DNA of 32,000 nucleotides. Source: an uncultured Chloroflexia bacterium. Lineage in GTDB: Bacteria > Chloroflexota > Ktedonobacteria > Ktedonobacterales > JADMIN01. This document shows positions 7,100-25,442 of the stretch, in pieces. Positions within the stretch are counted from its first letter, which is position 1. Each line of letters starts with the position of its first letter. The notes beneath the pieces were generated by a model. That model did no database searches, was not told the DNA's origin, and saw only the letters and a program-made list of their open reading frames with translations. The DNA lies in the NCBI GenBank assembly GCA_963718915.1, contig CAVRAI010000003.1:840001-872000 (forward strand), given 5' to 3'. The translations under genes and the position numbers were made by a program.

Positions 7100-7122
7100 G
7101 CCCCACCTGCTAACGGTGGGGC
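7100..7122 (+). terminator. hairpin downstream of tRNA-Glu (possible terminator)
   Basis: GCCCCACC (7100-7107), loop TGCTAAC, GGTGGGGC (7115-7122). The downstream T-run is weak. Confidence 0.3.
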
Positions 7123-7267
7123 GCTCTCATTTCCTGAGGGCTGGAGTCTCGCCACCCCTCTCTTTCATCATGGCGTCAATCGAGCAATCTTTCCATCGCC
7201 GCGGCGGCATCCTTCTGTATGCTTGGTGGGACGTGCGCGCGCCTGGCGCTTTGGCGCAGACACGGTA

Positions 7268-7459
7268 CTAGTAGCGGTCGCTGTAGCCTTTGCCGCCATT
7301 TTGATCGGCCTCGGCTGGAGTTACCCACCAGTGGTTCTGGAGGCGCCACGGCTCATTGCGCGCCAGCACACGATAATGCGCCTGGCGCCAGGTGAACGCG
7401 CTCGGCTGACCGTCCGCGGATGTCTCGACTGCTACTGGTATGTCGATGCGCCTGGGCAT
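7268..7459 (-). CDS. hypothetical small protein (63 aa)
   Basis: The ORF lacks low-complexity character (MPRRIDIPVAVETSADGQPSAFTWRQAHYRVLARNEPWRLQNHWW...). No family assigned with confidence. Confidence 0.4.
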   Translation of the reverse strand: MPRRIDIPVAVETSADGQPSAFTWRQAHYRVLARNEPWRLQNHWWVTPAEADQNGGKGYSDRY

Positions 7460-7622
7460 GCTCTCATAACCTCCTGAACACCTCCAGCATGGCGCAGCGC
7501 TAGCTCCTCGACAAGGCGTCTTGATGTGTCACCCGCAGACAAGAGCGGCGATCGACAGGCGCAAAAATGCCCCACCGACGACACGATGTGCCGATGGGAC
7601 GATTGGATCTCGGACTGCTCGA

Positions 7623-7946
7623 TCAATGCTCGTGATCGAAGTGGGCAATGGTGCGCGCTTGCACTTCGCCAAGGGATGGCTCGGCCATTACCCACACTTC
7701 GCGGTGCTGTTGGCGGGCGTACGTCTCGGCAAGCTGGAGCGCACGTGCGCGATCTTCCGTCACGTAGGTGCTGGTTGAGTTCCAGTCAGACACGCCCAGC
7801 TCCGCTGCTTCCGCTGGGCGGGTGACGTACTCGCCACCAGGCGACCCCTTAGGGGGGTAGGTGGTCTCGCCGATGCGAACGGTGTAGAGCGTGCGGTCAG
7901 ACTGCGGCCACTTTGGCTCCTTCGGCATACTGTCAGCCATGTGCAA
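7623..7946 (-). CDS. hypothetical protein (107 aa)
   Basis: ORF with balanced composition, on the same strand as 7268-7459. No recognisable motif. Confidence 0.45.
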   Translation of the reverse strand: MHMADSMPKEPKWPQSDRTLYTVRIGETTYPPKGSPGGEYVTRPAEAAELGVSDWNSTSTYVTEDRARALQLAETYARQQHREVWVMAEPSLGEVQARTIAHFDHEH

Positions 7947-8490
7947 CCCCTTTCACGGGTTGTTGAGCGTGTCGTAGAACAGCGGGTTCGTTACATGTAA
8001 CGAACTAGCTTCCCTCGCGTTACTCTGCGTCATCATCTCCCATCCCCTCCATCGGCTCAGGGAGCGCAGCGAAGACACACCAGTGGGGCGACGCGCTGCC
8101 ACGCTGGCCACCGCCTCAATGCAAGCGGAGTGCCTGCGCCACGGGGCGGACCCTGGCAGCATACCACCATTGCAAGCATCATCATGCATTGTGCCGCATG
8201 AGGGCGCTGCTCAATCGGGAGTATTGTGTCTTCCATAGCCCGGAAGCCACCGAGGGTCGCAGGGTCGGTAGCAGGGTCGGTGGCATGGCAAGCAGCAACG
8301 TACAGCGCGGGCTGAAGCGATTGCCGCCAAATCTGCGTGAGGTGATGGATCATGTAGCGGTCGGCGTCGAGCAGGTGCACGAGGGCACGCTGATGCCTGG
8401 GCAACTCTCGGCCATGGCGGCTGGCGCTACGGCGCTCGTCAAGTTGGTTGAGGCTGCTGTTCTCGCGCCGGGGATTGAGGCGTTGCGCCT

Positions 8491-8548
8491 CCAGGACGCC
8501 GCCCTCTCAAGGCGGAGATCACGGGTTCGAATCCTATATGCGCTACCA
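8491..8548 (+). pseudogene. orphan 3' portion of tRNA-Glu (att-like direct repeat of 7039-7096)
   Basis: 56/58 identical to 7039-7096, with a 44-bp perfect run. The two mismatches (CCCGT to CCTAT) break the T stem. There is no 5' half. Confidence 0.88.
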
Positions 8549-8556
8549 CAAATAGT

Positions 8557-8586
8557 CCTGACCATCATGGTTGGGGCTTTTGTTTT
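8557..8586 (+). terminator. rho-independent terminator-like hairpin after the tRNA-Glu remnant
   Basis: CCTGACC (8557-8563), loop ATCAT, GGTTGGG (8569-8575; 7 bp including two G-U), then GCTTTTGTTTT. Confidence 0.45.
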
Positions 8587-8620
8587 ACCAATGCCGACCC
8601 ATCGCCTGGAGCTGGTTCGA

Positions 8621-8680
8621 TCATGGTGAAAGGCTGACGGTGGGGCGCTCAGGAGGTGGGTAGCGACCGCAGCTCAACCC
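8621..8680. repeat. direct repeat, left copy (displaced 3' end of the oxidoreductase gene)
   Basis: Matches 17495-17558. Perfect 19-mer cggtggggcgctcaggagg (8638-8656 vs 17516-17534) plus 12-mer tagcgaccgcag. The minus strand reads ...VELRSLPTS* (stop at 8649-8651), versus ...IDLRSLHAS* in the intact gene. Confidence 0.8.
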
Positions 8681-8819
8681 CGAAGACCTCATCAGTCAGG
8701 ACGAACTGCTCGAAACGCAGAAGTACGACGAGTTCATTCCTCTGCATCTTCTCCGCAAGGGATTTGCGTCAGACAGACGCGATGTGGAGGGGGTGAAGCG
8801 CCTTGTCGCTACGTGGTAA
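8664..8819 (+). pseudogene. possible orphan C-terminal gene fragment (51 codons, no start codon)
   Basis: Open frame RPQLNPEDLISQDELLETQKYDEFIPLHLLRKGFASDRRDVEGVKRLVATW* begins directly after a stop at the repeat boundary. It has no ATG/GTG/TTG start. Confidence 0.25.
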
Positions 8820-9120
8820 AGCGCACAGCATCACAGATGTACGTAGAAGCTGGGGTGCAAGATTGTTAGTTTGATAGGAGTGCATCGTGTAGCCGGATTG
8901 TCCTGATTGCTGCATTTCCGCTTTTCGCCATCGTTAGGGTATTCATAGTGGTGTGCATTTCCCCCAAAGAGTTGCGCGTTGTCGTACGCACGTATACCCA
9001 CTTTTCGTGCTCAGTCAGGCTCTGCCGTGATACGTGCGCCATGCAAAAAGCGCGATAGGAAATTAGCATTCCGCGAGCATTCCTGCTGAGGAAACAGCAC
9101 CAGCAGAACTGGAGGGCAGC

Positions 9121-10371
9121 ATGGCGTCATTCACTGATCTCGTCGCCAGACATATCCAGCAGCGGCAACAGGAATTTCTGGCTACACTCTCTCCAACGCC
9201 ACACAATCACACGGAAACAATCCTGGCTGAGAGCGTGCAACGATTCTGGCATCCGCTTCCGCAAGACACCGAGGATACACAGACGGAGGCGCTTCCCTCC
9301 AGTTCGGCTGCGGTTGATGGCTCGCGGGCTACGCGGGCGCTGAACGCAGGTGCTGATTGGGTCATCGCGCAGGCATTGCTCCTGGGGACGGGTGGTCTTT
9401 GCCTCACCGCAGCGGATACTGTTCTGCTCAGGGGCGACGCCGAGCGCCCAGCAGTAGATCGCTGTGCGGCCTTGTTGATGCGTTCTCTGGAACTCGACCT
9501 AGCGCTCAAATATGCTCGGAGCGGTGAAGGTGACCTGCTCTTGCTCGATGGTTCCCTTTATGCCGAGTTGCCACATTTGCTCTATCCCCTGGCTGTGCGT
9601 GGTCAGGAACAATTGCCACTGCAGGTGTTACAACGCTACCTCGACCTCTTTGAGTGCTGCCAGGAACGTGGCATAACGCTTCTAGGGGTATCCAAGAGTG
9701 CGCGGTCGAAAGCGCTTGCGCAGGCTATACTTCTCACAAGCCACACAGACACGGTTGAGGGAGATGCAAGCGCTGATGTGGCGCATGTTTCGTTACCGCA
9801 GGCGCCACGACGCGTCGCTCATGACTTCGATGAGATGATGCAACAGGCGCCAACCGATGCAGAGTTACTCCACCGTTGGACATCAGGCGCTGGGTTCAGC
9901 GATCCCATCCTGCTCGGCACCGCATCGTTTGGGCATCGACGCGAGCGAGTTCAGACAGATCCACGGCTACTCGCCGAACAGTTCCGTGGAGGTTCACTGT
10001 CTGAGACCGAGTGTCGCGCCATCTTGGAGCGATTGCGTACTGCTCCCGCCATCGGCACGTTCTACATCCGTCTTGCCCCTGGCGACGATGTGCTTCGGAT
10101 TGACGCGCCAGCCGACATCTATGGAAGAGCAGACAACCATCTGCTCGACGTCCCCCACGAGATGTTGCCATACCAGGATGCAGAGGCTCTTGTCAGATAT
10201 CTGCGTCGCGGATATGGTGGCCCCAATGTCTACAACGCCGCGCTCTATATCGTGGATCGCGAAGTCCGTCTGCACGCACAGACGGTCGATCACCTGTATC
10301 TTTCGCTCTTGCGACGGCAGCTTGACATTCCGATTCGATTTGACCGCTCGACGCTGCGATTTGTTCAGTAG
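9121..10371 (+). CDS. nurA: NurA-like 5'-3' nuclease
   Basis: NurA-type motifs in order: AVDGSRA, SLELDLAL, LLLLDGSLY, LLGVSKSARSK, YNAALYIVDREVR. GGAGGG lies 5 nt upstream of the ATG. Confidence 0.75.
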   Translation: MASFTDLVARHIQQRQQEFLATLSPTPHNHTETILAESVQRFWHPLPQDTEDTQTEALPSSSAAVDGSRATRALNAGADWVIAQALLLGTGGLCLTAADTVLLRGDAERPAVDRCAALLMRSLELDLALKYARSGEGDLLLLDGSLYAELPHLLYPLAVRGQEQLPLQVLQRYLDLFECCQERGITLLGVSKSARSKALAQAILLTSHTDTVEGDASADVAHVSLPQAPRRVAHDFDEMMQQAPTDAELLHRWTSGAGFSDPILLGTASFGHRRERVQTDPRLLAEQFRGGSLSETECRAILERLRTAPAIGTFYIRLAPGDDVLRIDAPADIYGRADNHLLDVPHEMLPYQDAEALVRYLRRGYGGPNVYNAALYIVDREVRLHAQTVDHLYLSLLRRQLDIPIRFDRSTLRFVQ

Positions 10372-10392
10372 CAGCTCAGCAGCAGCTCAGCA
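10371..10392. repeat. 11-bp x2 tandem repeat at the nurA stop
   Basis: GCAGCTCAGCA GCAGCTCAGCA, starting in the last base of the TAG stop codon. Confidence 0.85.
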
Positions 10393-10412
10393 GAGACGCT
10401 TGAGAACGCCCC

Positions 10413-10451
10413 GATGGAGGACAGTGATGGAGGACAGTGATGGAGGACAGT
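10413..10451. repeat. 13-bp x3 tandem repeat, each unit carrying GGAGGA plus ATG
   Basis: GATGGAGGACAGT x3, followed by a partial fourth unit (ATGGAG). ATGs at 10414, 10427 and 10440 fall in three different frames. Confidence 0.9.
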
Positions 10452-12155
10452 ATGGAGCGCCAACTATCTTCTCTCTATGGTCTGGAAGCAGGATTCATTG
10501 TAGGTGAGACCAATCCACTGGAGTTCACCTTCGTCAGCAGTCGCGAGATGCTCCCTCCCCGTCTGGAATATTTGATTGTTCCGGGCGTCGAAGAGCGTAC
10601 TGCGTTATCTGGTACAGAAGCACAACCAAAACGAGTGGATGTACTAGCACAGGTGACTGAGGTAGGCATCGACTCCGCCGTTCTCTCCGAACGCCTGACG
10701 TATGACGAGGCGCTGGCAATCCTGCGAGGAGCCTACGCGCCACCGCCTAAGATGTACGGACGCGCGCGTGTCATTGGCTATCTCGCGGGCCAGACAGTGC
10801 GCGTACCCCGTTGCGCGGCGAGTCCAGGGAGCACTGTCTATGTCGCGCCGGATGCCTTTCTGCAACGTTTCTTCAGCCAAGAGATCAATGCGGGCATCGA
10901 CCTGGGAACGCTCATCAATCGCCCTGAAGTGCCTGTTCTCCTTGACCCAAACGGCCTGCGTCGTCATCTGGCCATCATTGCGCAGACGGGGGCAGGCAAA
11001 TCGTATCTGGCGGGAAAACTCTTCGAGAGCCTCCTCCAATTGGGAGCGACCATTTTCGTCTTTGATCCTAACTCTGACTACGTTCAGTTGCGAAAGGTGG
11101 CCAGACAAGAGCAGCAGCCGTATGACGCCGCAGAGAGAACCGCATTTGCCGATGACATTGCGATCTACCGAATTCCAGGGATCCAGGGTAGACGTTTTCC
11201 CGATGCGATAATAGGGCCAACCAGCGATTTTACCGTCCGTTTCTCCGATCTCGACGCAGATGAAATCAGTGTACTGGTTGGCATATCCGAACGCGCAACC
11301 AACTTGCGTGGAGCCGTCAACCGGGCATGCGCCCAACTGAGGCAACGCAACATTGACTATCGTCCGGCGGAACTGATCGCAGAACTACAGGGCCGCAACA
11401 ACGAACCTCCGACCGAGGAAGAAGACAAATCCGCAGATGACAATCCGCTTGGGCAGGAAGATAGGCAGACGGCATACAAGGCTGCGCGCTATATCGAGCG
11501 ATTGAAAGACCTCGCGGTGTGGGGGTATCAGGACGTGGATATCGAGCCGTTGCTAGCCCCACAGCATCTGACCGTGTTCGACCTCGCTGGAGCAGATAAG
11601 ATGGTGGCCGCCTACGCCGCCGAACGCACCCTGCGTGAGATTTGGCAGCGCGCACTCAGGGGGAAGTTGAATCACCCCGTCTTCATTGTGCTGGAAGAGG
11701 CGCACAACCTCATCCCAGCGGCTGGCAATACCCGCGCCAGTCGTATCATCAATACCATCGCTGCCGAGGGCCGAAAGTTTCGCGTCTTCCTGACACTCAT
11801 CACCCAGAGACCCAGTAAGGTCAATCCAGATACACTCTCGCAATGCGGCAGCCAGATTATTATGCAACTCACCAATCCCGATGACCAGCGCGCTGTGCAG
11901 AAAGCATCAGAGGCTATCTCTGCTGAACTGCTAGCGGATCTTCCGGGATTGAATAAAGGCGAGGCTATTGTACTCGGCCAGTTGACACGCATCCCGGTGA
12001 TGCTCTCTGTCTCTGGGCGAGCATCAGCCGAAGGTGGAAGCGATATAGATGTCGTGCAGGAACTCAAACGCGCGGCACTCGCCAGGGGTACTCAACGCGC
12101 GGCCCAGGAGATGCGCGGGCGAGGGGCAGTCGCCCGTCAACGTGAGGAATGGTGA
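10437..12155 (+). CDS. herA: HerA/FtsK-class hexameric ATPase (DUF87/HerA-like)
   Basis: N-terminal barrel-like region. Walker A IIAQTGAGKSY (about 10981-11010). Walker B VFIVLEEAHNLIP. LITQRPSKVNPDTLSQCGSQIIMQLTNPDD. In-frame starts at GTG 10437, ATG 10440 and ATG 10452. Confidence 0.88.
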   Translation: MMEDSMERQLSSLYGLEAGFIVGETNPLEFTFVSSREMLPPRLEYLIVPGVEERTALSGTEAQPKRVDVLAQVTEVGIDSAVLSERLTYDEALAILRGAYAPPPKMYGRARVIGYLAGQTVRVPRCAASPGSTVYVAPDAFLQRFFSQEINAGIDLGTLINRPEVPVLLDPNGLRRHLAIIAQTGAGKSYLAGKLFESLLQLGATIFVFDPNSDYVQLRKVARQEQQPYDAAERTAFADDIAIYRIPGIQGRRFPDAIIGPTSDFTVRFSDLDADEISVLVGISERATNLRGAVNRACAQLRQRNIDYRPAELIAELQGRNNEPPTEEEDKSADDNPLGQEDRQTAYKAARYIERLKDLAVWGYQDVDIEPLLAPQHLTVFDLAGADKMVAAYAAERTLREIWQRALRGKLNHPVFIVLEEAHNLIPAAGNTRASRIINTIAAEGRKFRVFLTLITQRPSKVNPDTLSQCGSQIIMQLTNPDDQRAVQKASEAISAELLADLPGLNKGEAIVLGQLTRIPVMLSVSGRASAEGGSDIDVVQELKRAALARGTQRAAQEMRGRGAVARQREEW

Positions 12156-12217
12156 CGGTTAGGAGTCGACCGAGCGCTGGCGAGATGACTTGTTTGTGAT
12201 GAGAGGGATGGAGCAGG

Positions 12218-13204
12218 ATGGGTGATCTGGATAGCCGCGAAAATCCTGGTGAGACTCGGCAACGTGAGCGGGAACATGAAGATATGTGGACGAATGATAT
12301 TTTGCGGGTGGTGGTGACGGCCGACAACCATCTTTCTGCATTTACACCTAAACTCTCTCCACAACGACTGAGCGAACGTCGGCAACGGCTGCGCAGGGCA
12401 TTCGCGCGGGTGGTGGATGAGGCTATTGCCCGGCAGGCCCATCTGTTCATCCAGGCAGGCGATCTTTTCGACAGCATCGAGCCACGCAATCTGGAGCGCG
12501 AATTCGTCGCCGCACAGCTTGCGCGCCTGCATTCGGCTGGTATTCAGACATTCGGCATCAGTGGCAATCATGATACGCCACGCCAGCGTACTGAGCATGG
12601 TGGTTTCGCTCCTCAGGGTATCTATGCCGAACTTGGGGGTATTCACTACTTCCCTGAATCGGACTGCATCAAGCCCGTTCTGGTTGAGGCGGCACGTATG
12701 CGCGTAGCGGTGGCAGGTCTGAGTTGTAATCCAGGTGCGGCGCCCGGAGGCGATCCGCTCGATGATGTGGTGACAGAAGACCCGGATGGCAACCTGGCGC
12801 GTGCAGATGTTGGTATCCTGATACTGCATGCGGCTATCGAGGGTCATGGCTTTCCCAGCGAAGATGAGTTATTCGTCCGACGAGCGAGCATCGAGCGTAT
12901 CACAGGCTTCAAGCTGATCCTTGCGGGACATGTTCATGCCTACGCGCGATTCGACGTAGCCAACAAGTCCGTGGTAGTGTGTGGCCCTACGGCGCGTATG
13001 AGCTTTGGCGAGGCGGAGGACAAAACGGGCTTTGCTTATCTGGAGCTTCGCCACGATGGACGCTTCCATTCCGAGCATGTTGCCATTCCCTCTCAGCCAC
13101 GGCATATTGTGACAATCCAAACGTCCGAACTCTGGCCCCAACAACAGCAGCAGATTCTGACACCATCAGATCGCATGACGATCACCGACTGCCGACGCTG
13201 CTGA
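12218..13204 (+). CDS. Mre11/SbcD-family metallophosphoesterase nuclease domain (ends prematurely relative to family architecture)
   Basis: All phosphoesterase motifs are present: VVTADNHL, QAGDLFD, GISGNHD, ILILHAAIEG, LAGHVHAY. GGAG lies 5 nt upstream of ATG 12218. Stop at 13202-13204 after a Q-rich stretch. Confidence 0.85.
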   Translation: MGDLDSRENPGETRQREREHEDMWTNDILRVVVTADNHLSAFTPKLSPQRLSERRQRLRRAFARVVDEAIARQAHLFIQAGDLFDSIEPRNLEREFVAAQLARLHSAGIQTFGISGNHDTPRQRTEHGGFAPQGIYAELGGIHYFPESDCIKPVLVEAARMRVAVAGLSCNPGAAPGGDPLDDVVTEDPDGNLARADVGILILHAAIEGHGFPSEDELFVRRASIERITGFKLILAGHVHAYARFDVANKSVVVCGPTARMSFGEAEDKTGFAYLELRHDGRFHSEHVAIPSQPRHIVTIQTSELWPQQQQQILTPSDRMTITDCRRC

Positions 13205-13358
13205 TGTATCTGGCATATCTGCCGCAGTAGCGCCATCCGATGCGCCATCAGCAACCTATCCGCCGGATGCTGTCCAGGACATCACAGCGCTTCCAGGCTC
13301 TGATTCTACACGTCCTGCCGCAGACACTGCGGAAGCTGAGGATACCGTACACCGAGCA

Positions 13359-13724
13359 ATGCAGGTGATTCTCGATCGGATCAGGCCGTACTGTACCCCT
13401 GACGCGATGGTACGGCTCTGCCTCACAGGTCCGATTTCTCGCGAGCGCTACCGCGCACTTGATCTGCGCAAAGTTTGGCTTATCGCGCAACATCAGGCGT
13501 TCTCGTTTGAACTCGATGAGTCTGGCCTCTTTCTGGTCGAGCAGGGATCGCAGGAGCAGGTGGTTCGTGGTGAGCGCATCGCGCCGCGTGAGATGCTGGA
13601 GCAGGTCATGGGAGCCTGGATGGATCGTGCCAAGACAACTGCTGAACGCACGCTTTTGGCAAAGACTCGCGAACGAGTTCTCACATTATACGAGCAGTTA
13701 ACGGGGGGGGAAGCGACGCGATGA
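13359..13724 (+). CDS. Mre11 C-terminal (capping/Rad50-binding-like) domain encoded as a separate ORF in another frame
   Basis: VILDRIRPYCTPDAMVRLCLTGPISRERYRALDL... resembles the region that follows the nuclease core in single-chain Mre11/SbcD homologues. This frame is open from 13179. Its stop overlaps the next gene's start (ATGA at 13721-13724). Confidence 0.55.
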   Translation: MQVILDRIRPYCTPDAMVRLCLTGPISRERYRALDLRKVWLIAQHQAFSFELDESGLFLVEQGSQEQVVRGERIAPREMLEQVMGAWMDRAKTTAERTLLAKTRERVLTLYEQLTGGEATR

Positions 13725-16700
13725 TTACGCTCCGACATCTGCATGTGGAGAACTTTAAGGGGCTGGATAGCGTAGACCTCTCCTTCCCTGAACAGGGCAG
13801 CATCCTCATCGAAGGCCATAACGAAGCAGGAAAGTCAACCCTTTTCGAGGCAGTCTATGTCGCACTCTATGGTGAGCCTTTAGTCGGCGAGGACAATCGC
13901 CCACGTCTTGAGGAGGTCATCAAGCATGGTCAGCCGCAGGCGCTGGTCGAATTGACCTTCGCCGTCAGCACCGAGCAACTCACGATACGCCGTGTCTTGA
14001 GACGGGAACAACCTCAACAGGCGCGGCTTACTATCCGCCAACCCAATGGTCATGAGGAGACTGTCAATCGTCCCACCGCCGTCAATCGACGCATCCTGCA
14101 AGAGTTGAACAATTTGGACGGCGATAATCTGCGCAACTCGTGCTTCGTCGAGCAGAAGGAACTGGGACGGCTGGAGGACATGAATCCCAGCAGGCGTGAG
14201 CAGGCAATCCAAAGCCTCCTGGGACTTGAGCGATTGACAAAGCTCTCAGACCAGTTCAAGTTCAAGCGCGAGCAGGAACGCGAGCTAGATCATGCACGGC
14301 GTCTACTCGAACTGGCCTACGCGCAACAGGATGTACGGGTGCTGGTGGTGGAAGAGCAGGCGGCTGCTGAACGTCTCGATGCCACGAGGATTGCCGCGCA
14401 ACTCACAGAATGCGCTGCGCTTGAAGAACAGCAGACGGCTCTCCGGGAGCAGTCGCAGGCAAATGTATTCCGTGAGACCGATCTACGCGGGCGGCTGGAG
14501 TATGCTGGCCGCATACGCGGCCAGGTTTCCAGGTGCAATGTGGTGCAGCAGCAACTGGAAAGAGCGACTGCTCAAAGGGAAACTGTAGAGCGGTTGAAGG
14601 GGAAGCTGGCAGAGATGGATGCCATCGAGCGCCAGGCAATACCCGAAACGAGAACACAACTCGACCGAACCTTGACGGCGCTCAAGTTGGTGGTTGACGC
14701 CGAAGAAAAGCGCATGGCAGTGCATGATGCTACTGGCATTGAGCAAGAAGCGCTACGTGCCGTTGCAGAGCTTGAACGGGCTAAAGAGGTCGTGCGTCAA
14801 CGGGCAGAAACGCTGGATATATCACGTGCGCGAGCGAATCAACACCGCAAGGAAGCAGCTTCGTCGCGCGAACAAAACCAGCGACAACTCGCGATACTGA
14901 GCGCTCGACATAATCAGTTGAGCCATATGCTTGAGTTGGTTATGGCATGGGAGCATAAACGCGACGCATTAGAGGCAGTGCGTCAGCAGATTCGTGATGC
15001 AGAGAAGAATGCGCAAAGGCTCCTGGAGCTTCGCGCTACCCTACTGCAGCGAGAAGAGACAGCCCACCAAGCGGTAGGTAGAGCGGAACAAGCGGAACGT
15101 AAGCGTCAACAGGCGGAGTCGCACCGGCGACAATCAGAGGGATATGAAGCGCTGCACGAGTGGATACGCCTGAAGGAGGTTGAGGCCTCGCTCTCCGGCT
15201 TTGCGCAGGATCGCACCACAATGGAAGCGGAGCGCCAACAGGCCACCGCTGCGTATGCGAGCGCCCAGGCGCGAGCGCGCGGGTTATTGTACCAAACAGC
15301 GGCCACTATGCTGCTGGCAATGATTGCTCTCGTAGCCGGAGCTATTCTATCCCCCTGGCTATTGGTCATTGGAGCTATCCTTGGAGTAGTGGCTATCTTC
15401 CGTGGTGGCGGCTATTGGCGTTCTCGCGTTGCGACGACAGCGGGTAAACAGGCAGTCGAGAGCGTGGCGAACAAGCTTCGCGAGCTCACAATGCGCTATC
15501 AGGCGGCGGTGCATGCTGGGGGTGATCCTGCCCAGCTCGGTCAGCGTGAGCGTGCCCTTACCGCAGCAGGATTCGCAGTCCCCTCGTCGCTTGATGCTGC
15601 GCGTAATCTACTGGCCAGGCTGTCTGCGGAAGGGATCATAGACTATCAGCGTGCAAGGGTGTCAGCAGATGAAGCGGTGACGACACTGGCCCGATTGAAG
15701 GCCGAGGCAGAGCGAGCACAAGGCGATGTCGATCAGACCAGGGTGGCGCTGCACAACCTTGAAGAGCAGGGTGATGCGTCTGTAATGCTGCGTGAACTCC
15801 ACATACGTGAGACCCAGGAGAGCAAAGCAGCCGAAGCTGCTGAGGCAACGGCTCGCGAGGCTACGAAAGGGGAATTGTCATGGCCGACGAATCAAGCTCA
15901 GATCGACATGGCGGCTGCGGCATGTCAGGCGGAGCAACAAACCATTCAGCGCACAATGGCTGATGCGGAAGCCCAGACAAGGCGCATAGAGCATGACGAT
16001 GAAGATGCTATCGCGCAAGCACACCAAGTACTTAGAACCGCTGAGGACGCTGTTGCGGTATTGCAGATGCCTGATCCTCAGGCAATGCTTACGGATGCGC
16101 AGGCAAATCTTGTCCATGCCGAAGAACTCGCGCGCGCAGCTGAAACGCAGTCGCAGTTGGCTGTTCGGGGCATGGGATTATCGCCCGAACGGACGGCAGT
16201 CGAGGCGGCGCGTGGGCGAGTAGAGGAGCGTCTGCGGAACCTGGAAAGCCAACTGACAACCCGGCCAGCGGTTGAAACTGCGTTCACTAACGCACAAACG
16301 ACATATGCAGACATGCTGCAGAAAGCGAGCAATGCGCTCCTGGCAATCGTGGAATCAGCCCGTTCACTTGCAATCGCATCGCTTCAAGGCGTCGCGGCGC
16401 TTGAAGATCAGGCCGCGCGTGAGCGTCCGTTGGCCGCCAGGCTAGACGAGGTGTGTGCTGCCCTCGTATCTGCGCTCACCGAGCTTCATGAGGCAGATGC
16501 ACAGACTGAGCTAGAGCGCCTCCTGCATGAGAAGGGGACACTGAACCAGCGCCTACAGTCTATGGAGAGTCAACTTGCCTCTATTGAGGGGGACATCCAG
16601 AGTATCTTGGCGGCGCGTCACCTCCCTACGCCTACCCAATATACTGCTACGGCATTGGCTGCTGTGTGGCCGTTGATCGGAACAGCCTCGGCTCACGAGC

Positions 16701-17440
16701 TTGATCGTATGCAACTGGAACTTGAGCAAGTTCGCAACCGCCACTTCGCAGCGCGTGATCGGGAGCATCGCCTGACCGAAATACTTGGTGATCCAGGGGT
16801 GGAACTCGAGGTCGAGGCGTGTGGCCATCGCGTCCAAGAACTCGATGAGGAGCGAGCCATCTGCCAGCACGCCATCGGCATAATCCAGGAGACTCGTGAT
16901 CGCATTGCTCGGCAGGTTCTGCCGACCACAGAACGCAATATGGAATTGTTGCTTCGTGAACTTACCATGCACCGCTACTGGAGCGTTCGATTGACACCAC
17001 CTGCCAGCGAAGAGAGGCAGCTCAACCAGCTTGATTACCGCATTCGTGTATGGGATCAGACAGCCCAGCGCTATGTTGCCAAGAATCTCTTCTCTGGAGG
17101 TACACGAGATCAATGTTCCCTGGCATTGCGGCTCGCCTTTGCTCTGGCGACTCTCCCACAGGAGCTAGGCATTGCGCCTGGTTTCATTTTTCTGGATGAG
17201 CCATTGAGCGCCTTCGATGCCCAGCGTGCGCAAGCACTTGTGAATCTGCTCACGACAGGAATCATTGCTCAGCAGTTCGCCCAGGTCGTGGTCATCTCGC
17301 ATCAGCATGCGTTTGATCGCAACGCATTTCAGTATCATATTCGTATGGATAGTGGCCAAGTCGTCGAGAGCGATCTCCCAGTGATGCCCAGCCACTCTTT
17401 GCAACGCACGCCTATGAAAGCCTCTAGTGCGCGTGCGTGA
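13721..17440 (+). CDS. Rad50/SbcC-like SMC-type ATPase with central hydrophobic hairpin
   Basis: Walker A GHNEAGKSTLFEAV. Q-loop FVEQKELG. More than 800 aa of heptad-like E/Q/R/A-rich sequence. Signature FSGGTRDQCSLALRLA. Walker B FIFLDEPLSAFD. H-loop VVISHQH. Hydrophobic block TAATMLLAMIALVAGAILSPWLLVIGAILGVVAIF at residues ~526-560. Confidence 0.9.
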   Translation: MITLRHLHVENFKGLDSVDLSFPEQGSILIEGHNEAGKSTLFEAVYVALYGEPLVGEDNRPRLEEVIKHGQPQALVELTFAVSTEQLTIRRVLRREQPQQARLTIRQPNGHEETVNRPTAVNRRILQELNNLDGDNLRNSCFVEQKELGRLEDMNPSRREQAIQSLLGLERLTKLSDQFKFKREQERELDHARRLLELAYAQQDVRVLVVEEQAAAERLDATRIAAQLTECAALEEQQTALREQSQANVFRETDLRGRLEYAGRIRGQVSRCNVVQQQLERATAQRETVERLKGKLAEMDAIERQAIPETRTQLDRTLTALKLVVDAEEKRMAVHDATGIEQEALRAVAELERAKEVVRQRAETLDISRARANQHRKEAASSREQNQRQLAILSARHNQLSHMLELVMAWEHKRDALEAVRQQIRDAEKNAQRLLELRATLLQREETAHQAVGRAEQAERKRQQAESHRRQSEGYEALHEWIRLKEVEASLSGFAQDRTTMEAERQQATAAYASAQARARGLLYQTAATMLLAMIALVAGAILSPWLLVIGAILGVVAIFRGGGYWRSRVATTAGKQAVESVANKLRELTMRYQAAVHAGGDPAQLGQRERALTAAGFAVPSSLDAARNLLARLSAEGIIDYQRARVSADEAVTTLARLKAEAERAQGDVDQTRVALHNLEEQGDASVMLRELHIRETQESKAAEAAEATAREATKGELSWPTNQAQIDMAAAACQAEQQTIQRTMADAEAQTRRIEHDDEDAIAQAHQVLRTAEDAVAVLQMPDPQAMLTDAQANLVHAEELARAAETQSQLAVRGMGLSPERTAVEAARGRVEERLRNLESQLTTRPAVETAFTNAQTTYADMLQKASNALLAIVESARSLAIASLQGVAALEDQAARERPLAARLDEVCAALVSALTELHEADAQTELERLLHEKGTLNQRLQSMESQLASIEGDIQSILAARHLPTPTQYTATALAAVWPLIGTASAHELDRMQLELEQVRNRHFAARDREHRLTEILGDPGVELEVEACGHRVQELDEERAICQHAIGIIQETRDRIARQVLPTTERNMELLLRELTMHRYWSVRLTPPASEERQLNQLDYRIRVWDQTAQRYVAKNLFSGGTRDQCSLALRLAFALATLPQELGIAPGFIFLDEPLSAFDAQRAQALVNLLTTGIIAQQFAQVVVISHQHAFDRNAFQYHIRMDSGQVVESDLPVMPSHSLQRTPMKASSARA

Positions 17441-19915: not shown

Positions 19916-20039
19916 TACATAATCCACAGTGCAGGGTTGCCCACAATCAGCGGTTTGCCTGGAAGAAAAACAACCCTGGCGGTCAAACCAGCGTAGAGAA
20001 TACCAAACGGCCTTGGATATCAGGGTAAGAGGGTCGCTT

Positions 20040-22616
20040 GTGATTCGAATAGTGAGCAAACAACGATCACGGCTTGGCATGACAGCACGACGGCTTCTTG
20101 CTGTTATGTCACTCGGCATTCTTGTAGTCACTCTATCTCCGCTCGCTTCTCTCTCTGTCCTTGCGCAGCCAGCCAGTTCCATCGCGCCGACAGCGTCCGC
20201 GCCTGCTGGCCATGTCACGATCCTCGTCCTCGATATGTCCGGCTCGATGGGCAGCAACGATCCGAATGGATTGCGCTGCTCGGCGGCTAACGCCTATATC
20301 GATTTGAGCGGGCCGGGCGATTTCGTCGGCGTCGTCGGTCTGGATAACACCGGCCCGACGGGCGGCGCGCATAACTTCCCGCTGGCGCAGGTATGGGCCG
20401 AGCCGAGTGAAATGGCGACGGTTGCCGCGCGCGCGCAACTGCATAACACCATCGCTACGAAGTCCCATAACTGCAAGCCCGACTCCGCGACCCCCACCTA
20501 CGACGCCTTGCAACGAGCGCTGACGATGCTCACGGCATCCACCGCGCAGACGCATCTGCCCGGCTCCGTCATCCTGCTGACCGATGGCGTGCCCGCGCCA
20601 CAACAGAACGAGCAGATCAGCGCGATCCAGACCGACCTCGTGCCGCAGTTCAAGCAGCGCGACTTTCCGGTTGATACGGTGGCCCTTGGCGCGGACGGCA
20701 CGCTGCGGTCGTTCCTGAGCGACCTCGCCAACGCGACGGGCGGCGCGTACTATGACGATGGACACGGCGTGGTCAGTGGCGTCTCGCCCTTGAACATCGC
20801 GCCCTTCTTTGTCAGCATCTTCGCCCAGCGCAATGGCCGCACGGTGACGCATGACATCCCGCCGACAGCGCTTTCCGGCGGCACGGTCTCGCGGAACTTC
20901 TCTATCGGCGCCTTTGTCTCGCATCTCGATGTCGTCGCCGTCAAAGACTCACCTGCTACGCGCGTGACGCTGACCGCGCCCAACGGCCAAGTCTTGCCGC
21001 CAGCGGTCGCCGGAACATTTATCTCCAGCGACCCTCATTACGTCATCTTCAGTGTGGATCATCCGCAGAGTGGGGCATGGCAACTGAATGTGACTGGCTC
21101 CGGGCGCTTCCTGATGGATAGCCTCAAGCTCTCGACCCTCGGCCTGAGCATCCTCGCGCCCGCCTCGGACACGCCAGAGCCGCTGGGCCAGCCGCTGACG
21201 GTGAGCGCGACGCTCAACGACAATGGCACGCCGATCACTGGCAGCCGCTATAGCATGAACGGAACGATTGCCTACAGCGGCGGCACGGGTAGCTATACGC
21301 AGGAGTTCGTGCTGGACGACCACGCCAGCCCGGGTACCTATGCCGCGCAGATTACGATTCCGCCCAGCGCGCCCGCTGGAACCTATAACGTCACGATCAA
21401 CGCGCGCGAGGTGAGCGATACCATCGCCAGCGCCAATCGTCTGGTCCGCATCGAACTCTTCCCATCGCCGCTGCTCGTCGCTCCCTCCACCGGCAAGCTC
21501 ACCACCGATACCGTCGCCACGAGCGAGACCCTGTGGGATCCCGCACTGCGCGCGATCTATAGCGTGCCGTTTGGGGTGCTGACCTGGCTCAGTGGCTGGC
21601 CGTTGCAGGGGCATCCGGTGGTGGACGGCGCGCGGCTCGACGGCGCGGTTCAGCTCGACGGCAAACCGTATGCTAACGCCAGCGTCAGCGGCTTGGCCAC
21701 ACGCGATGGCTCGAAGACGGCGATCCCGCTGCATATCGCGCCTGGCGAGAACGGGCGCTTCACGGCGGCCTTTACGCCCAGCGGTGACGGCCAGTACGCG
21801 CTGACGTTCAGGACGCTGGGCAGTTTCAAGGATTCGCATGGCGACCTCGGCACGACCACCCGCACGGTGGCGCTCAAGACGCAGCCCGCCTCGCTCGCGC
21901 AGGAGGCCATCGCCTGGGCCATTACGTTGCTATATCTCGCCATCCTCGTGCTGATTGTGCTGCTGATCCGCTATGCCATCTCGCAGAAGCCGTTCGGACG
22001 ATTGGTCTCCAACGACGGCGGAGGCGGCGAGGAGTTCTCCCGCGCACGTCGCGGGCTATTTGGGCTGCTGCATCCGGGCACGGTGCTCTCGCAGCAGATG
22101 GGGCTTGACCCCGGCCTGATCTTCAGCTTCCGGCGCGGCAACCGCATCACCGTCGAGGGCAACGGCGGCGGTCGGCGGGCCTACCGGCTTGGCGGCGAGC
22201 CGCTCCCCACCAGCCCCGTCCCTGCCGCGGAGTCGCTGCTGACGACCAACGAGGGGATGTCCTATACGGTGAGCGCGTCGAGTAGCGATGAGTTCCTGGA
22301 CGAAGAAGAGGGCACGCGGCGCGGCGGACTGCTGCGCCGCAAATCGGCCAGCGACGACTACTTTGACGATGACGACGCTCGTGGGCGGCGCGGTCTGTTC
22401 GGGCGGCGGTCGCGTGGCGACGACTACGATGACGAGGGGAATCGCGGCAGCCGACGTAAATCGCGGCGCGCGCGGGACGACTACGACGATATGGACGACG
22501 ACGGCCCCTCGCGCTCGCGCGGTGGTTCGCGTGGCCGTTCGCATGGCGATGATTTTGACGACTATTCTTCAGGCGGGCGATCCAGGAAATCGCGGCGGCG
22601 CGATGATGACTATTGA
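20040..22616 (+). CDS. exported von Willebrand factor A (vWA) domain protein with a single C-terminal TM helix and a charged disordered cytoplasmic tail
   Basis: GTG 20040 is preceded by AAGAGGG; ATG 20079 is an alternative start. Signal-peptide-like MTARRLLAVMSLGILVVTLSPLASLSVLAQP. MIDAS motif VLDMSGSMGS, TPTYDAL, ILLTDG. Long beta-rich ectodomain. TM helix AIAWAITLLYLAILVLIVLLIRYAI. R/D-rich tail. Confidence 0.85.
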   Translation: MIRIVSKQRSRLGMTARRLLAVMSLGILVVTLSPLASLSVLAQPASSIAPTASAPAGHVTILVLDMSGSMGSNDPNGLRCSAANAYIDLSGPGDFVGVVGLDNTGPTGGAHNFPLAQVWAEPSEMATVAARAQLHNTIATKSHNCKPDSATPTYDALQRALTMLTASTAQTHLPGSVILLTDGVPAPQQNEQISAIQTDLVPQFKQRDFPVDTVALGADGTLRSFLSDLANATGGAYYDDGHGVVSGVSPLNIAPFFVSIFAQRNGRTVTHDIPPTALSGGTVSRNFSIGAFVSHLDVVAVKDSPATRVTLTAPNGQVLPPAVAGTFISSDPHYVIFSVDHPQSGAWQLNVTGSGRFLMDSLKLSTLGLSILAPASDTPEPLGQPLTVSATLNDNGTPITGSRYSMNGTIAYSGGTGSYTQEFVLDDHASPGTYAAQITIPPSAPAGTYNVTINAREVSDTIASANRLVRIELFPSPLLVAPSTGKLTTDTVATSETLWDPALRAIYSVPFGVLTWLSGWPLQGHPVVDGARLDGAVQLDGKPYANASVSGLATRDGSKTAIPLHIAPGENGRFTAAFTPSGDGQYALTFRTLGSFKDSHGDLGTTTRTVALKTQPASLAQEAIAWAITLLYLAILVLIVLLIRYAISQKPFGRLVSNDGGGGEEFSRARRGLFGLLHPGTVLSQQMGLDPGLIFSFRRGNRITVEGNGGGRRAYRLGGEPLPTSPVPAAESLLTTNEGMSYTVSASSSDEFLDEEEGTRRGGLLRRKSASDDYFDDDDARGRRGLFGRRSRGDDYDDEGNRGSRRKSRRARDDYDDMDDDGPSRSRGGSRGRSHGDDFDDYSSGGRSRKSRRRDDDY

Positions 22617-22688
22617 CTGCCAGTTTGCGCGATAATCGCCTCGCTGGCAAACGGCCAGGCGAGGAGCAGCTTATAGATATGTAGACAA

Positions 22689-25442
22689 ATGACGATGAAC
22701 AGAGGTGATGGCATGGGCGACACTGATATGACACTTAACGCGGCCAATGGAGCGGAAGACAGACCACGATCAGCGGCAGAGTCGCAGATAGAAGTGCCGT
22801 CGCTCAACATTTTTCTTGGCAGTACTCCAGCGTACTCGGCCCTGGAGATGATGCGCCAGCTTGTCCATCTCTCGCCTTCTGACCATCGGCGCGTCGCGCT
22901 GGTCTTCCTCGATATCGACTCGCCCCCGGCGGAGGTTCAGCAGTTCCGCCAGGAGCATCTGGGCGTGCTGCGCGAGTTTGATCTGCGCATCTCGGTGGCG
23001 CACGGCGTTGTCTACGCGGACCAGTTGCCGCAGCCCATCGCGACCCATACCTACATCCCTACCAAAATCCCTGAGTCGTTCGATAACGGCGCGGGTGGCA
23101 TCCGCAACAACGGACACGTCGCCGCCGCAACCGACCGCGCCAAAATCGATCAGCTGCTCGAAGAGGCGCTCTCCGCGATTGGGGCGCTGCCTCCGGAGCG
23201 TGGGGCGCGCCCGGTGAGCGAGGTGCAGGTGAATATCGTCGCCTTCCTGGGCGGCGGCACCGGCAGCGGCATCCTGGGCGATGTCGCCGTAATGGCCCGA
23301 CATCGCATCTTGCAACGGAATCTCAAACACCGCCTGAATATCTTCTGCCTGCTGCCAGAGCACGTCCGCGAGGCGACCACCAATGACGTGAGCTGGCGCA
23401 AGAGTAACGCCACCGCGACCCTGATGGAGCTGATCGCGCTCAGCCTGGTGCGCGAGAATCGAGGTGGCGCGCGCTACACCAAATATATGGCGGAGACGCC
23501 CTATGAGGTGCGTGGCGAGACCATCGCCAACGAGGTCTATCTCTTCGGCAAAACTTCGATGGTCTCAGCGGAAGACGCGGCGCGCATTATCGGCCTTGAT
23601 CTCTATATGCGGGTGACCAACGCATCGGGTGTCGGCTTCCTCGAACGCTCTAAAGCCGTTGACCGCCGCACGCTCGGCAACTTCGACCGCACCGGCCTGC
23701 CGACGATGTTCGGCACCACCTGCCCGCTGGAGGTCGCCTTTCCCGCCATCGAGACAGCAACCGCCTTTGCCCGGCTGACCGCCTCGAAGGTGCTGCCGCT
23801 GCTGGCGCGCGACATGAGCGAGGCGCGCGGCCAACTGAACGCGAGCGATTTGGACGAAGTGAAAGAGTGGGACAGAGCGTTACAGCCAGAGGATCCGCCA
23901 CCCTTCAGCGATAAGAGCTTCCAGACGGCGGGGCGCGACCGGCTCGATATGTTGGAGGCGCGGCTGAGCAAGCAGGTGCAGGAGGCAACCGACGAGATTG
24001 CCGAACTGGCGGAGCAGAAGGAAGAGGAAGAGAAGAAGCGTATCTATAGCGCCGCGCTGGAGCCGCTCGGCGTGCAGATCGCCCGACTGGAGACGCGCAA
24101 GCGTATCTATAGCGCCGCGCTGGCTCGCGTGCAGGATCAGAATGTGCCCAGCAAGGGACGCCCCGACCGCCAGCTCCAGCGCAAACTGCTCCGGCCGCTG
24201 CCACTGCCCGGCGCAAAAGACCGCAACGTCGCCGCCGTCACCGACGACTTCAACCGCGTTCAGCGGCGGAATGTGCGCAACGAGTATCTGACGCGCAAGA
24301 AGCGCCTGCTGACCAAACTGCTCGAATATGTCAACGCCGAGTTGCAGCACGTCAAGCGCTTCCAGGGGGATGTCGAGGTCGATCAGTCGGCGCGCGACCT
24401 GGAGAAGCTAGCCACCTCGTCGTCGGCCTGGCGCGGCGAGTTGGACAATACCCACATTCACCGGCGCCACGTCTTCGATCTACCCGGCATGCCCGGCATG
24501 AATACGGGCGGGCTATCGTCGCCGCCGGTCGAGCGCCTGTACGAGCACATGACCTCGCGCGACCTGCCCTCCTATGCGCAGCGCTTTACTGAGTGGATAC
24601 AGACGCGCCACGGGGCCGATGCGGCGCTGGCGGCGGGCACGGGCAACGAGCTACGCGACCGGCTGGTGCAATATCTACGTGACGAGGTCTATCTCAAGCG
24701 GCTGCTGGAGATGAATCTCTTCGATTTGCTGGAGGTCTGCTGCGTCGAGTCGGGTGAGCGCGCCGATCACAAGATCGAGAATATCTTGCTGGCGCATCTG
24801 CAACACATCAGCGGCCTGGCCCGCGAGCTGGTGGCCTTCGAGGCGCAACTCTGGCACGAGGGCAGCGGTATGCTCAGCACCAGCCTCTACATGGGGATGA
24901 GTTGGAAGAGCGGCTTTCAGCGGCGGATTCTGGATCGCGCGCGCGGTCGGCTCGGCGCCATCGCCAAAGAAGGCGCAAGCCCAATGCTCGCCAGCGCGAT
25001 TGACCCGCACCGGCTGCAACTGGCCTATGGGCAGCACGCCATCAGCCTGGGCACCATTCCCGATTTCTATCAGGAAGCCAACAGCAGCATGGGCGAGTTC
25101 CTGCGCCACCAGTCATACTGGTTTGTCGATGGCAGTAAGCAATCGTATGGTCGGAGCCGAGCGCCCGTCTTCAGTTCCGGCGAGATGGAAAAGCTGGTGA
25201 TGGATCCTAATGCGCTTCTCGATGGTAAAAGCACGCTGCCAGCGCGTATCATCCGACAGGTACAGCGTGGCGCGGGCGATGCGCCCACGTGGGCGACGAG
25301 CCAGCCGGGCAGCGCTTACGCCCCGACGGCGCCCACCGCGGCATCCAACGGGCAGTATCCGCCACAGCAGCCAACGTATCCGCGTGGCGGCGCTAGCGGT
25401 ACGAGCGGATATGGGAGCGGCGGTGGCGGGTCGAGCTTCTAG
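22689..25442 (+). CDS. large tubulin/FtsZ-superfamily-like GTPase domain protein with coiled-coil region and Gly/Ser/Tyr-rich tail
   Basis: T4 signature GGGTGSG (23250-23270) matches the PROSITE tubulin pattern. T3-like FDNGAGGIRNNGH (about 23079-23120). E/K/R-rich helical middle. C-terminal tail QYPPQQPTYPRGGASGTSGYGSGGGGSSF. Alternative start ATG 22713, preceded by GAGGTGA. Confidence 0.8.
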   Translation: MTMNRGDGMGDTDMTLNAANGAEDRPRSAAESQIEVPSLNIFLGSTPAYSALEMMRQLVHLSPSDHRRVALVFLDIDSPPAEVQQFRQEHLGVLREFDLRISVAHGVVYADQLPQPIATHTYIPTKIPESFDNGAGGIRNNGHVAAATDRAKIDQLLEEALSAIGALPPERGARPVSEVQVNIVAFLGGGTGSGILGDVAVMARHRILQRNLKHRLNIFCLLPEHVREATTNDVSWRKSNATATLMELIALSLVRENRGGARYTKYMAETPYEVRGETIANEVYLFGKTSMVSAEDAARIIGLDLYMRVTNASGVGFLERSKAVDRRTLGNFDRTGLPTMFGTTCPLEVAFPAIETATAFARLTASKVLPLLARDMSEARGQLNASDLDEVKEWDRALQPEDPPPFSDKSFQTAGRDRLDMLEARLSKQVQEATDEIAELAEQKEEEEKKRIYSAALEPLGVQIARLETRKRIYSAALARVQDQNVPSKGRPDRQLQRKLLRPLPLPGAKDRNVAAVTDDFNRVQRRNVRNEYLTRKKRLLTKLLEYVNAELQHVKRFQGDVEVDQSARDLEKLATSSSAWRGELDNTHIHRRHVFDLPGMPGMNTGGLSSPPVERLYEHMTSRDLPSYAQRFTEWIQTRHGADAALAAGTGNELRDRLVQYLRDEVYLKRLLEMNLFDLLEVCCVESGERADHKIENILLAHLQHISGLARELVAFEAQLWHEGSGMLSTSLYMGMSWKSGFQRRILDRARGRLGAIAKEGASPMLASAIDPHRLQLAYGQHAISLGTIPDFYQEANSSMGEFLRHQSYWFVDGSKQSYGRSRAPVFSSGEMEKLVMDPNALLDGKSTLPARIIRQVQRGAGDAPTWATSQPGSAYAPTAPTAASNGQYPPQQPTYPRGGASGTSGYGSGGGGSSF
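24036..24123. repeat. in-frame 63-bp-period internal duplication in the tubulin-like gene
   Basis: The 25-mer AAGCGTATCTATAGCGCCGCGCTGG occurs at 24036-24060 and 24099-24123. It encodes KRIYSAAL twice. Confidence 0.9.

Follow-up and report, generated by a model that had tools for sequence, protein, structure and literature searches.

A hookless Rad50/SbcC-like ATPase with a predicted transmembrane hairpin at its coiled-coil apex in a Ktedonobacterial NurA-HerA-Mre11-Rad50 operon

Hookless Rad50-type ATPases and their closest described systems

The arms of Rad50/SbcC proteins fold back antiparallel, and their apex bears a CxxC zinc hook. This hook is regarded as a hallmark of Rad50/SbcC proteins, and the role of the apex is still debated. 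We analyzed a 32,000-nucleotide (nt) stretch of the genome of an uncultured Chloroflexia bacterium of the order Ktedonobacterales (contig CAVRAI010000003.1, positions 840,001 to 872,000; hereafter the window), which encodes a hookless Rad50/SbcC-like ATP-binding cassette (ABC) ATPase of 1239 amino acids (aa) (13721-17440, + strand; identified by Pfam, family profile, and Foldseek). Our best reading is that a hydrophobic block in the center of this protein (15284-15400) forms a predicted two-helix transmembrane (TM) hairpin, which replaces the zinc hook at the apex of the coiled coil. The composition and conservation of the block, its flanks, a predicted helix break, the operon in which the gene lies, and a parallel in Bacillus SbcE carry this reading, and we consider it likely that the locus as a whole encodes a membrane-anchored DNA-end machine.

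The ATPase shares with canonical Rad50/SbcC the Walker A, Q-loop, SGG signature, Walker B, and H-loop motifs, an antiparallel coiled coil, and an adjoining Mre11/SbcD nuclease gene, and differs from it in the missing zinc hook, in a hydrophobic apex that is predicted to be membrane-embedded, and in a C-terminal arm that is longer by about 177 aa. Reading of the sequence placed the Walker A motif at G32-HNEAGKST-40 (13814-13840, + strand), the Q-loop at Q145, and the SGG signature (1125-1127), Walker B D1159-E1160, and H-loop H1194 at 17090-17302 (+ strand). All head motifs are conserved in the family alignment, with almost invariant columns for Walker A and invariant or nearly invariant columns for the C-terminal motifs. 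Pfam assigned AAA_23 (62.8 bits, 9e-17), SMC_N, AAA_29, AAA_27 (25.9 bits; cutoff, 22), and SbcC_Walker_B. A 72-member family profile searched against the PDB retrieved the archaeal Rad50 heads of M. jannaschii (5f3w/3aux; 74 bits, E 6e-20), followed by the Rad50 proteins of P. furiosus (46 bits) and T. maritima (44 bits). The best NCBIfam matches were archaeal Rad50 equivalogs, at 82 bits against a cutoff of 1087. The top Foldseek hits of an AlphaFold2 model in the PDB were full-length SMC, MukB, and Rad50 chains, a generic result in which the root mean square deviation over the arms is meaningless.

An SbcC-like design that lacks the hook and has a hydrophobic center has been known since 2010 and is not categorically new. 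SbcE of Bacillus subtilis has lost the CxxC and interacts with SbcF, and its "unique central domain" contains a conserved proline, is hydrophobic in its first half, and was completely insoluble when produced on its own (Krishnamurthy et al., PMC2811018). The same study attributed roles in transformation and double-strand-break repair to SbcE, observed polar foci of a fusion to yellow fluorescent protein in competent cells, and did not term the central domain transmembrane (PMC2811018). We located the Bacillus yhaO-yhaN locus (L008) via its neighbor prsA, and one retrieved match was named "DNA repair/recombination ATPase SbcE [Bacillus subtilis]". The center of Bacillus YhaN (963-969 aa) reads KQKKAVMSAGMLFIVLFLLLQQWIPAICIGAALIVYWVAAGKK, with the proline-turn segment LLLQQWIPAICIG; it consists of K/R, 18 hydrophobic residues, W-I-P, another 18 hydrophobic residues, and K. 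YhaN/SbcE had been named in the original prediction as a possible precedent, and it proved to be an apt one, having the same hairpin and no CxxC and lying beside an Mre11-like gene. Both proteins have an SbcC/Rad50-like ABC head and long heptad arms, and the Mre11-like Metallophos gene yhaO lies directly upstream of yhaN with overlapping ends. The differences lie in the nearly equal arms of SbcE (963 aa) and in the absence of NurA and HerA from the Bacillus locus.

At the sequence level, the window ATPase and YhaN are only remotely related. BLASTP aligned only the head ends of the window ATPase and YhaN (E 4e-5), and AAA_27 scored 99.8 bits for YhaN versus 25.9 bits for the window ATPase, whose AAA_23 score was 62.8 bits. 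Family hidden Markov models (HMMs) did not recover YhaN (<25 bits), and a YhaN profile had no match in the PDB, whereas the window family matches archaeal Rad50. In hhalign, each head half aligned with YhaN at 96% probability and a 240-column central slice at 87% (E 4e-6), with the hairpins in register; since a column-reversed control of this slice still gave E 2e-4 (44% probability), much of the central score is compositional. The hairpin alone was not significant in the profile-profile comparison with YhaN (0.012 versus 0.007 for the reversed control). Of the arm segments, only the post-hairpin motif aligned by itself (ERALTAAGFAVPSSLDAARNLL versus ERFMKELGFKEDPSFLLDAYSLM; E 6e-4 versus 0.72 when reversed); it shares E..L...GF..PS.L with YhaN. 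A mixed MAFFT alignment of the window family and YhaN misplaced the post-hairpin region and was set aside for searching. AlphaFold2 prediction of B. subtilis SbcE from 18 Bacillus sequences was uninformative on its hairpin, with a predicted local distance difference test (pLDDT) value below 50 over residues 440-517. We concluded from these sequence comparisons that the window family and YhaN have a design, and possibly an origin, in common, with the window family representing a distinct Rad50-proximal branch.

The central hydrophobic block as a predicted membrane hairpin

In the frame of the ATPase gene, the block translates as LLYQTAATMLLAMIALVAGAILSPWLLVIGAILGVVAIF (residues 522-560), and its central sequence with the proline turn is AGAILSPWLLVIG. 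A run of 40 residues (521-560) is free of D, E, K, R, and H and is bracketed by ARAR (516-520) on one side and by R561, R567, and R569 on the other. The original prediction had described 35 uncharged residues around 526-560 with a central S-P-W and flanking R/K; the block and its flanks stood, and the length of the run had to be corrected. Its claim that the protein has no CxxC agreed with a scan of the whole protein, in which all eight cysteines (141, 231, 272, 735, 912, 1034, 1048, and 1132) were isolated and neither a CxxC nor a C-x(0-6)-C pair was found. The 19-residue Kyte-Doolittle mean peaked at 2.53 and, across the whole protein, exceeded 1.6 only for segments starting at residues 521-548. 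Hessa apparent free energies, calculated as position-independent sums in a purpose-coded estimate, were -2.0 kcal/mol for residues 527-543 and +0.4 kcal/mol for residues 544-560, while the best segment elsewhere reached +6.7 kcal/mol or worse. The block is thus the sole hydrophobic segment of the window ATPase. With a charged-or-His content of 29.5%, a charge-free run of 40 residues has a chance of 0.705^40 = 8e-7 per start, or about 1e-3 per protein; a chance origin was dismissed because the block occurs at the same position in all 120 best-listed homologues.

As read from the sequence, the block has the features of an in-out-in hairpin, namely, two putative helices of about 21 and 20 residues, basic flanks on both sides, an aromatic belt, and a short charge-free loop. 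Column statistics were taken from a 72-sequence family alignment, and all features lie on the + strand. The presumably cytoplasmic N-flank is a basic cluster at residues 516-520 (15266-15280), with K/R at 516, 518, and 520 in about 70% of the sequences. It leads into predicted TM helix 1 (residues 523-543; 15287-15349), which is charge-free over 523-542, is charged in at most about 8% of the sequences at 543, and has a family median Hessa value of -3.1 kcal/mol. Proline occurs at 522 in 56% of the sequences, G/A/S at 540 in 97%, Trp at 543 in 54%, and Pro at 546 in 44%. The tight turn S544-P545-W546 (15350-15358; family consensus W-x-P) would lie at the outer face. The loop spans 0-11 residues in the family (median, about 3; 0-3 in the window subgroup) and has about no charges. 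Predicted TM helix 2 (residues 547-566; 15359-15418) ends in an aromatic belt spanning 562-566, with W/Y/F at 565 in 86% of the sequences and W at 562 and 564 in 54% and 42%, respectively. The second basic cluster, R567 and R569 (15419-15427), likewise presumed to be cytoplasmic, has K/R in 79% and 81% of the sequences. On average, the 12-residue flanks of the hairpin contain 2.5-2.9 K+R versus 0.4-0.5 D+E. Helix 2 also carries the small-residue motif G551xxxG555, and small-xxx-small motifs can be read in both helices.

The family data were consistent with a membrane segment under selection. A search of 5.8 billion proteins retrieved 233 relatives at E ≤ 1e-5, and the figures given for 120 homologues refer to the best 120 of these 233. 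Their named members all belong to Ktedonobacteria or Chloroflexota, with identities down to 27%. The central hydrophobic segment was present at the equivalent position in 120/120, usually as a 40-50-residue charge-free stretch that is sometimes interrupted at the turn, and an apical CxxC was found in 0/120, with three proteins having a CxxC elsewhere. The possibility that homologues carry a hook elsewhere, which would have spoken against a membrane anchor, received no support from the 72-sequence alignment, which contains no alternative hook, no conserved Cys pair, and no conserved arm Cys. When an HMM of the central module (183 columns) was searched exhaustively against 1.84 billion representatives, only 116 proteins were recovered at E ≤ 1e-3 (67 at ≤ 1e-10), and the named ones were exclusively Ktedonobacterales or Chloroflexi; the module is therefore clade-restricted. 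Another 43 long proteins, drawn from these matches and from cluster members, all had a hydrophobic center and no CxxC. Closely spaced Cys pairs of any other kind were likewise absent from the apex in the window ATPase, the 120 homologues, and these 43 proteins, and none was conserved. No region of the protein is less conserved in sequence than the block (27% identity, versus 61-69% in the heads), while hydrophobicity remains constant (mean Eisenberg hydrophobicity, 0.66-0.70; hydrophobic moment, 0.16-0.18). Such low identity with steady hydrophobicity is the pattern expected from sequence for lipid-facing helices rather than for a soluble interface. Relative to the closest relative, L001 (91% nt identity), the ratio of nonsynonymous to synonymous substitution rates (dN/dS) was 0.38 for the block and 0.32 for the whole ATPase gene, values that point to purifying selection on the hairpin.

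An AlphaFold2 model of residues 1-1200, built from the same alignment (mean pLDDT, 80; predicted template modeling score, 0.39), showed a helix at 494-543, a two-residue break at S544-P545, and a helix at 546-600, with a pLDDT of about 75-84 over 520-570. The break places the predicted reversal of the arms in the middle of the hydrophobic block. Both putative TM helices run on into the arms in the model, so that the hairpin would carry the coiled coil on into the membrane. The arms (183-1081) are almost wholly helical in the prediction. The N-terminal arm (residues 183-521; 14267-15283, + strand) lies in a near-continuous helix (183-491 and 494-543; pLDDT, about 70-90), and the C-terminal arm (residues 567-1081; 15419-16963, + strand) contains numerous helix breaks. 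Their lengths of about 338 and 515 aa, a C-terminal surplus of about 177 aa according to the predicted secondary structure, came close to the unequal arms of about 350 and 530 aa in the original prediction, whose suggestion of a membrane hairpin or anchor also gained support from the composition, the flanks, the aromatic belt, and the modeled apex break. The same surplus was present in an 864-aa homologue (P0076).

The two most conserved arm elements flank the hairpin. The pre-hairpin motif ALxxW481xRLKxVE (15152-15184, + strand), about 40 residues before helix 1, has an invariant W481 and R483, L484, and K485 at ≥90%. The post-hairpin element RQAAxxxGGDPxxLxQxExxLxxxGxxVP621xSL (15497-15610, + strand) has an invariant P621 and A595, G601, and E610 at ≥90%, and its GGDP601-604...P621 portion lies about 35-55 residues after helix 2. 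These elements lie at similar distances on either side of the hairpin, and the sole nearby predicted helix breaks (492-493 and 601-602) are close to them, which suggests a conserved juxtamembrane joint or, alternatively, a partner-binding site. Further along the C-terminal arm (residues about 883-1081; window 16367-16963), a conserved block at 898-1081 follows a low-confidence loop (884-900) in the model, shares 54% identity with P0076, and contains a near-invariant W983-P-L; it could represent a helical insertion close to the head. Over window 14001-16000, AT skew (+0.19) and GC skew (+0.10) peaked across the N-terminal arm and hairpin region, presumably reflecting the purine-rich codon usage of E/R/Q/A-rich arms.

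Comparable layouts exist in unrelated proteins. Mitofusin/atlastin-type proteins consist of an NTPase, a heptad repeat, a TM hairpin, and a second heptad repeat. The likeness is one of analogy only: a nucleotide-hydrolyzing head and coiled coils that flank a tight hairpin, with the rest of the protein on one side of the membrane. They differ in their unrelated dynamin-like GTPase fold and in their function in membrane tethering or fusion, and no homology is claimed. The family profile also had a weak PDB match to colicin Ia (1cii; positions 314-555, E 1e-4), in which a very long coiled coil leads into a membrane-inserting hydrophobic hairpin, again an analogy rather than homology.

The four-gene operon and its genomic neighborhood

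The ATPase gene is the last of four genes on the + strand. It is preceded by genes for a NurA-type nuclease (9121-10371; Pfam NurA, 9e-18), a HerA-type hexameric translocase ATPase (10437-12155; Pfam DUF87, the HerA central domain, 6e-32, and HerA_C), and an Mre11/SbcD-like nuclease (12218-13724; Pfam Metallophos). The Mre11 stop codon overlaps the start codon of the Rad50-like gene (ATGA), and the two genes are translationally coupled. No membrane-like segment was detected in the NurA, HerA, and Mre11 partners (maximum Kyte-Doolittle value, ≤1.68). The best NCBIfam models for NurA, HerA, and the Rad50-like protein were archaeal repair equivalogs with every score far under its cutoff, HerA scoring 190 bits with "DSB repair helicase HerA" (cutoff, 970) and NurA 32 bits (cutoff, 400). 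The archaeal HerA-NurA-Mre11-Rad50 operon likewise clusters these four gene types on one strand. The window operon differs in its bacterial host (Chloroflexota/Ktedonobacteria), its order (NurA-HerA-Mre11-Rad50), the predicted membrane hairpin of its Rad50, and its frequent location among defense genes.

In the window, the Mre11 gene is split into two open reading frames (ORFs; 12218-13204 and 13359-13724), which match the two ends of an intact 502-aa homologue (L001:8496-10004) with 94% and 92% identity. Alignment of the DNA traced the split to a 1-nt insertion near 13182 (GATCACC versus GATACC in L001); the gene is intact in L001 and L003. The frameshift is either an assembly error or a recent inactivation. 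Relative to L001, dN/dS was 0.16-0.32 for all genes of the block and 0.18 for the part of Mre11 past the frameshift.

The arrangement NurA-HerA-Mre11-Rad50 with the predicted hairpin also occurs in L001/L002, L003 (Ktedonobacter sp. SOSP1-85), L032, L034, L036, and L037. L032 and L034 were reached independently via HerA homologues (about 55% identity), and their Rad50-like proteins (1027 and 1035 aa) have the hairpin and no CxxC. Remoter hairpin ATPases in L004, L006, and L007 form pairs with Mre11 and lack NurA and HerA, as in Bacillus. Synteny between the window and L001 is confined to 8670-17413 and starts abruptly at 8670; the last 48 codons of the Shango helicase SngC remain in the window (8673-8816). 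The L001 copy of the four-gene block is bordered by a complete Shango system (SngA, 3e-68; SngB, 5e-187; SngC, 3e-253; L001:1-5102) on one side and by Druantia DruE1 (1707 bits; L001:13789-19386) on the other. The neighbors in L033 are a type I restriction-modification system and an NsnB-like ATPase, and those in L036 are two Mrr-type nucleases. In L034, the N terminus of HerA (1702-3981) bears an EAD7 effector-associated domain (37.7 bits; cutoff, 32). A TPR/beta-propeller/VRR_NUC protein is encoded after this operon, and a gene for a SAVED-domain protein lies close by; as read from sequence, this setting hints that the operon is wired into a conflict system. L032 and L037, and likewise the two-gene loci L006 and L007, have housekeeping neighbors. 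In total, roughly 5/8 of the four-gene loci lie amid conflict genes, a placement that is suggestive but not decisive.

PADLOC, run on the four proteins, gave generic ATPase matches to LmuB (5e-22), HerA (3e-43), mad3, and, weakly, JetC. No PADLOC model matched the Mre11 or NurA proteins, and neither cognate partners nor a complete known system was found. Assignments to Lamassu, MADS, and Gabija were rejected, as these matches reflect only generic ATPase heads. Lamassu LmuB and Wadjet JetC resemble the window ATPase in having an ABC/SMC-type head with a coiled coil and, in several loci, a defense-island setting; the partners here are Mre11, HerA, and NurA instead of LmuA/LmuC or JetA/B/D. We know of no description of a membrane hairpin in LmuB or JetC.

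Elsewhere in the window, the stretch of about 2.8 kb upstream of NurA (6350-9120) contains no ORF of more than 150 aa, and a tRNA within it (7020-7093) is about 1.6 kb away from the point at which synteny breaks off. The stretch may be a deletion scar or an integration hotspot. Rfam identified two tRNAs only in the window (362-433 and 7020-7093). Three large co-oriented ORFs at 19929-28762 encode a VWA-domain protein (895 aa), a Tubulin_2-like protein (917 aa), and an 831-aa protein without a Pfam match.

Proposed mechanism, competing readings, and significance

We infer insertion, topology, hairpin dimerization, and substrate from the features described above. Both basic flanks, both arms, and the ATPase head would be cytoplasmic, with only the 0-11-residue loop reaching the outer face. 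The hairpin would span the membrane in-out-in and tether an M2R2-like complex through arms that, by established coiled-coil geometry, could reach about 50 nm when fully extended (338 residues with a rise of about 0.15 nm per residue). As the Rad50-like protein is co-translated with the Mre11-like nuclease and its gene follows NurA and HerA, the hairpin would tether a whole machine for DNA-end recognition and resection. Its site would be the inner face of the cytoplasmic membrane, where nearby DNA ends could be bound and processed and where HerA-NurA could extend resection. Candidate substrates are incoming or invading linear DNA and broken chromosomal DNA at the nucleoid periphery, so that meeting DNA at cell entry is a possible purpose, one of at least two live ones. 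Two hairpins may pair in the bilayer by small-residue (GxxxG-type) packing, which would replace the apex-apex pairing of zinc hooks.

Several observations weigh against a membrane-spanning hairpin in a working machine. Helix 2 of the window sequence is marginal (+0.4 kcal/mol) and includes R561, the Hessa values are simple estimates, the copy of the machine in the window may not function because of the frameshifted Mre11, and SbcE foci were described as "on the nucleoid" and moving from pole to pole within minutes, with no membrane signal reported (PMC2811018). R561 is peculiar to the window sequence, with C at that place in the closest homologue. The marginal helix 2 and the very tight turn of the window subgroup would also suit a monotopic or re-entrant hairpin, which would enter the inner leaflet but not cross the bilayer and would serve as a peripheral anchor in the manner of the paddle in bacterial dynamin-like proteins. 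We regard this as quite unlikely: each helix is long enough to span the bilayer, the polar loops of distant members (5-11 residues; N, Q, S, and P) would sit in the bilayer core, and the Trp at the turn and the aromatic belt at the far end resemble interface positions of both leaflets. In a different arrangement, two hairpins would replace the hook by forming the buried four-helix bundle of a soluble hydrophobic dimerization core. The small-xxx-small motifs of both helices are compatible with such a bundle, as is the view of Rad50 apices as dimerization modules that can be exchanged for an SMC hinge; such a hook-to-hinge swap in Rad50 is reported to work in vivo (PMC6969161). A soluble core is nevertheless very improbable, given that about 40-45 charge-free residues with a hydrophobic moment of 0.16-0.18 recur in >100 diverged sequences and leave no polar face for solvent, that the block is the least conserved part of the protein, unlike a specific soluble interface, that the basic flanks and aromatic belt are signatures of a membrane interface, and that the equivalent SbcE domain was "completely insoluble" alone (PMC2811018). 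An in-out-in TM hairpin thus remains our preferred reading of the block.

The other competing readings concern the purpose and the state of the locus rather than the hairpin. The same architecture might serve mainly in anti-phage or anti-plasmid defense, with the tethered Rad50/Mre11 catching the end of entering linear DNA and HerA-NurA degrading it processively. The four-gene block is conserved while its flanks vary (synteny with L001 ends at 8670 and 17413), and it stands beside Shango, as the SngC remnant in the window also attests, beside Druantia, and near the conflict genes of L033, L034, and L036; the LmuB and HerA models of PADLOC match as well. Neighborhood is association, however, and the housekeeping surroundings of L032, L037, L006, and L007, the absence of PADLOC matches for Mre11 and NurA, and the NCBIfam scores, which place HerA closer to the repair type (190 bits) than to anti-phage HerA models (104 and 99 bits), argue against defense as the main role. 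The genomes of Ktedonobacteria are very large and rich in such genes, which also weighs against it. Moreover, SbcE, the one analogue that has been studied experimentally, promotes transformation and the repair of double-strand breaks and does not act as a barrier to DNA entry (PMC2811018). We therefore treat a main role in defense as a tentative possibility that falls short of an even chance. A more specific proposal, that these genes constitute an undescribed four-component defense system of Chloroflexota in which a membrane-stationed Mre11 end-sensor hands injected or transferred linear DNA to HerA-NurA, is somewhat unlikely. More generally, the hairpin would then stand in for the hook as a natural replacement, and the Rad50 apex would need only a pairing or anchoring module. 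Finally, the locus may be decaying in the window genome, leaving the hairpin protein as a relic there, as suggested by the insertion that splits Mre11 and by the 48-aa remnant that is all that is left of the upstream SngC helicase. We consider decay unlikely: the Rad50-like, HerA, and NurA ORFs are intact, dN/dS is low in all genes, including Mre11 past the frameshift, an indel of one base may have arisen in assembly, and the family is intact in many genomes.

In the papers searched, which also covered SbcEF and Rv1277/Rv1278, we found no description of a transmembrane Rad50/SbcC/SMC-like protein or of a Chloroflexi NurA-HerA-Mre11 operon beyond the 2010 SbcE paper. Four aspects are apparently new: the explicit TM-hairpin reading with family-wide evidence, the Rad50-proximal Chloroflexota family that bears the hairpin, the occurrence of a hairpin Rad50 within an archaeal-style NurA-HerA-Mre11-Rad50 operon, and the frequent defense-island location of this operon. 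A lineage with a predicted membrane hairpin at the Rad50 apex, retained under purifying selection across >100 diverged proteins alongside Mre11 and, in one of the branches, HerA-NurA, would constitute a natural experiment on the function of the apex. In B. subtilis SbcE, the "unique central domain" can be re-read as a hairpin of the same kind, in a genetically tractable host, and the family would offer a route to testing membrane-organized DNA-end processing in DNA uptake, conjugation, phage entry, and repair at the nucleoid periphery. Its repeated placement among defense systems makes the four-gene block a candidate new defense module.

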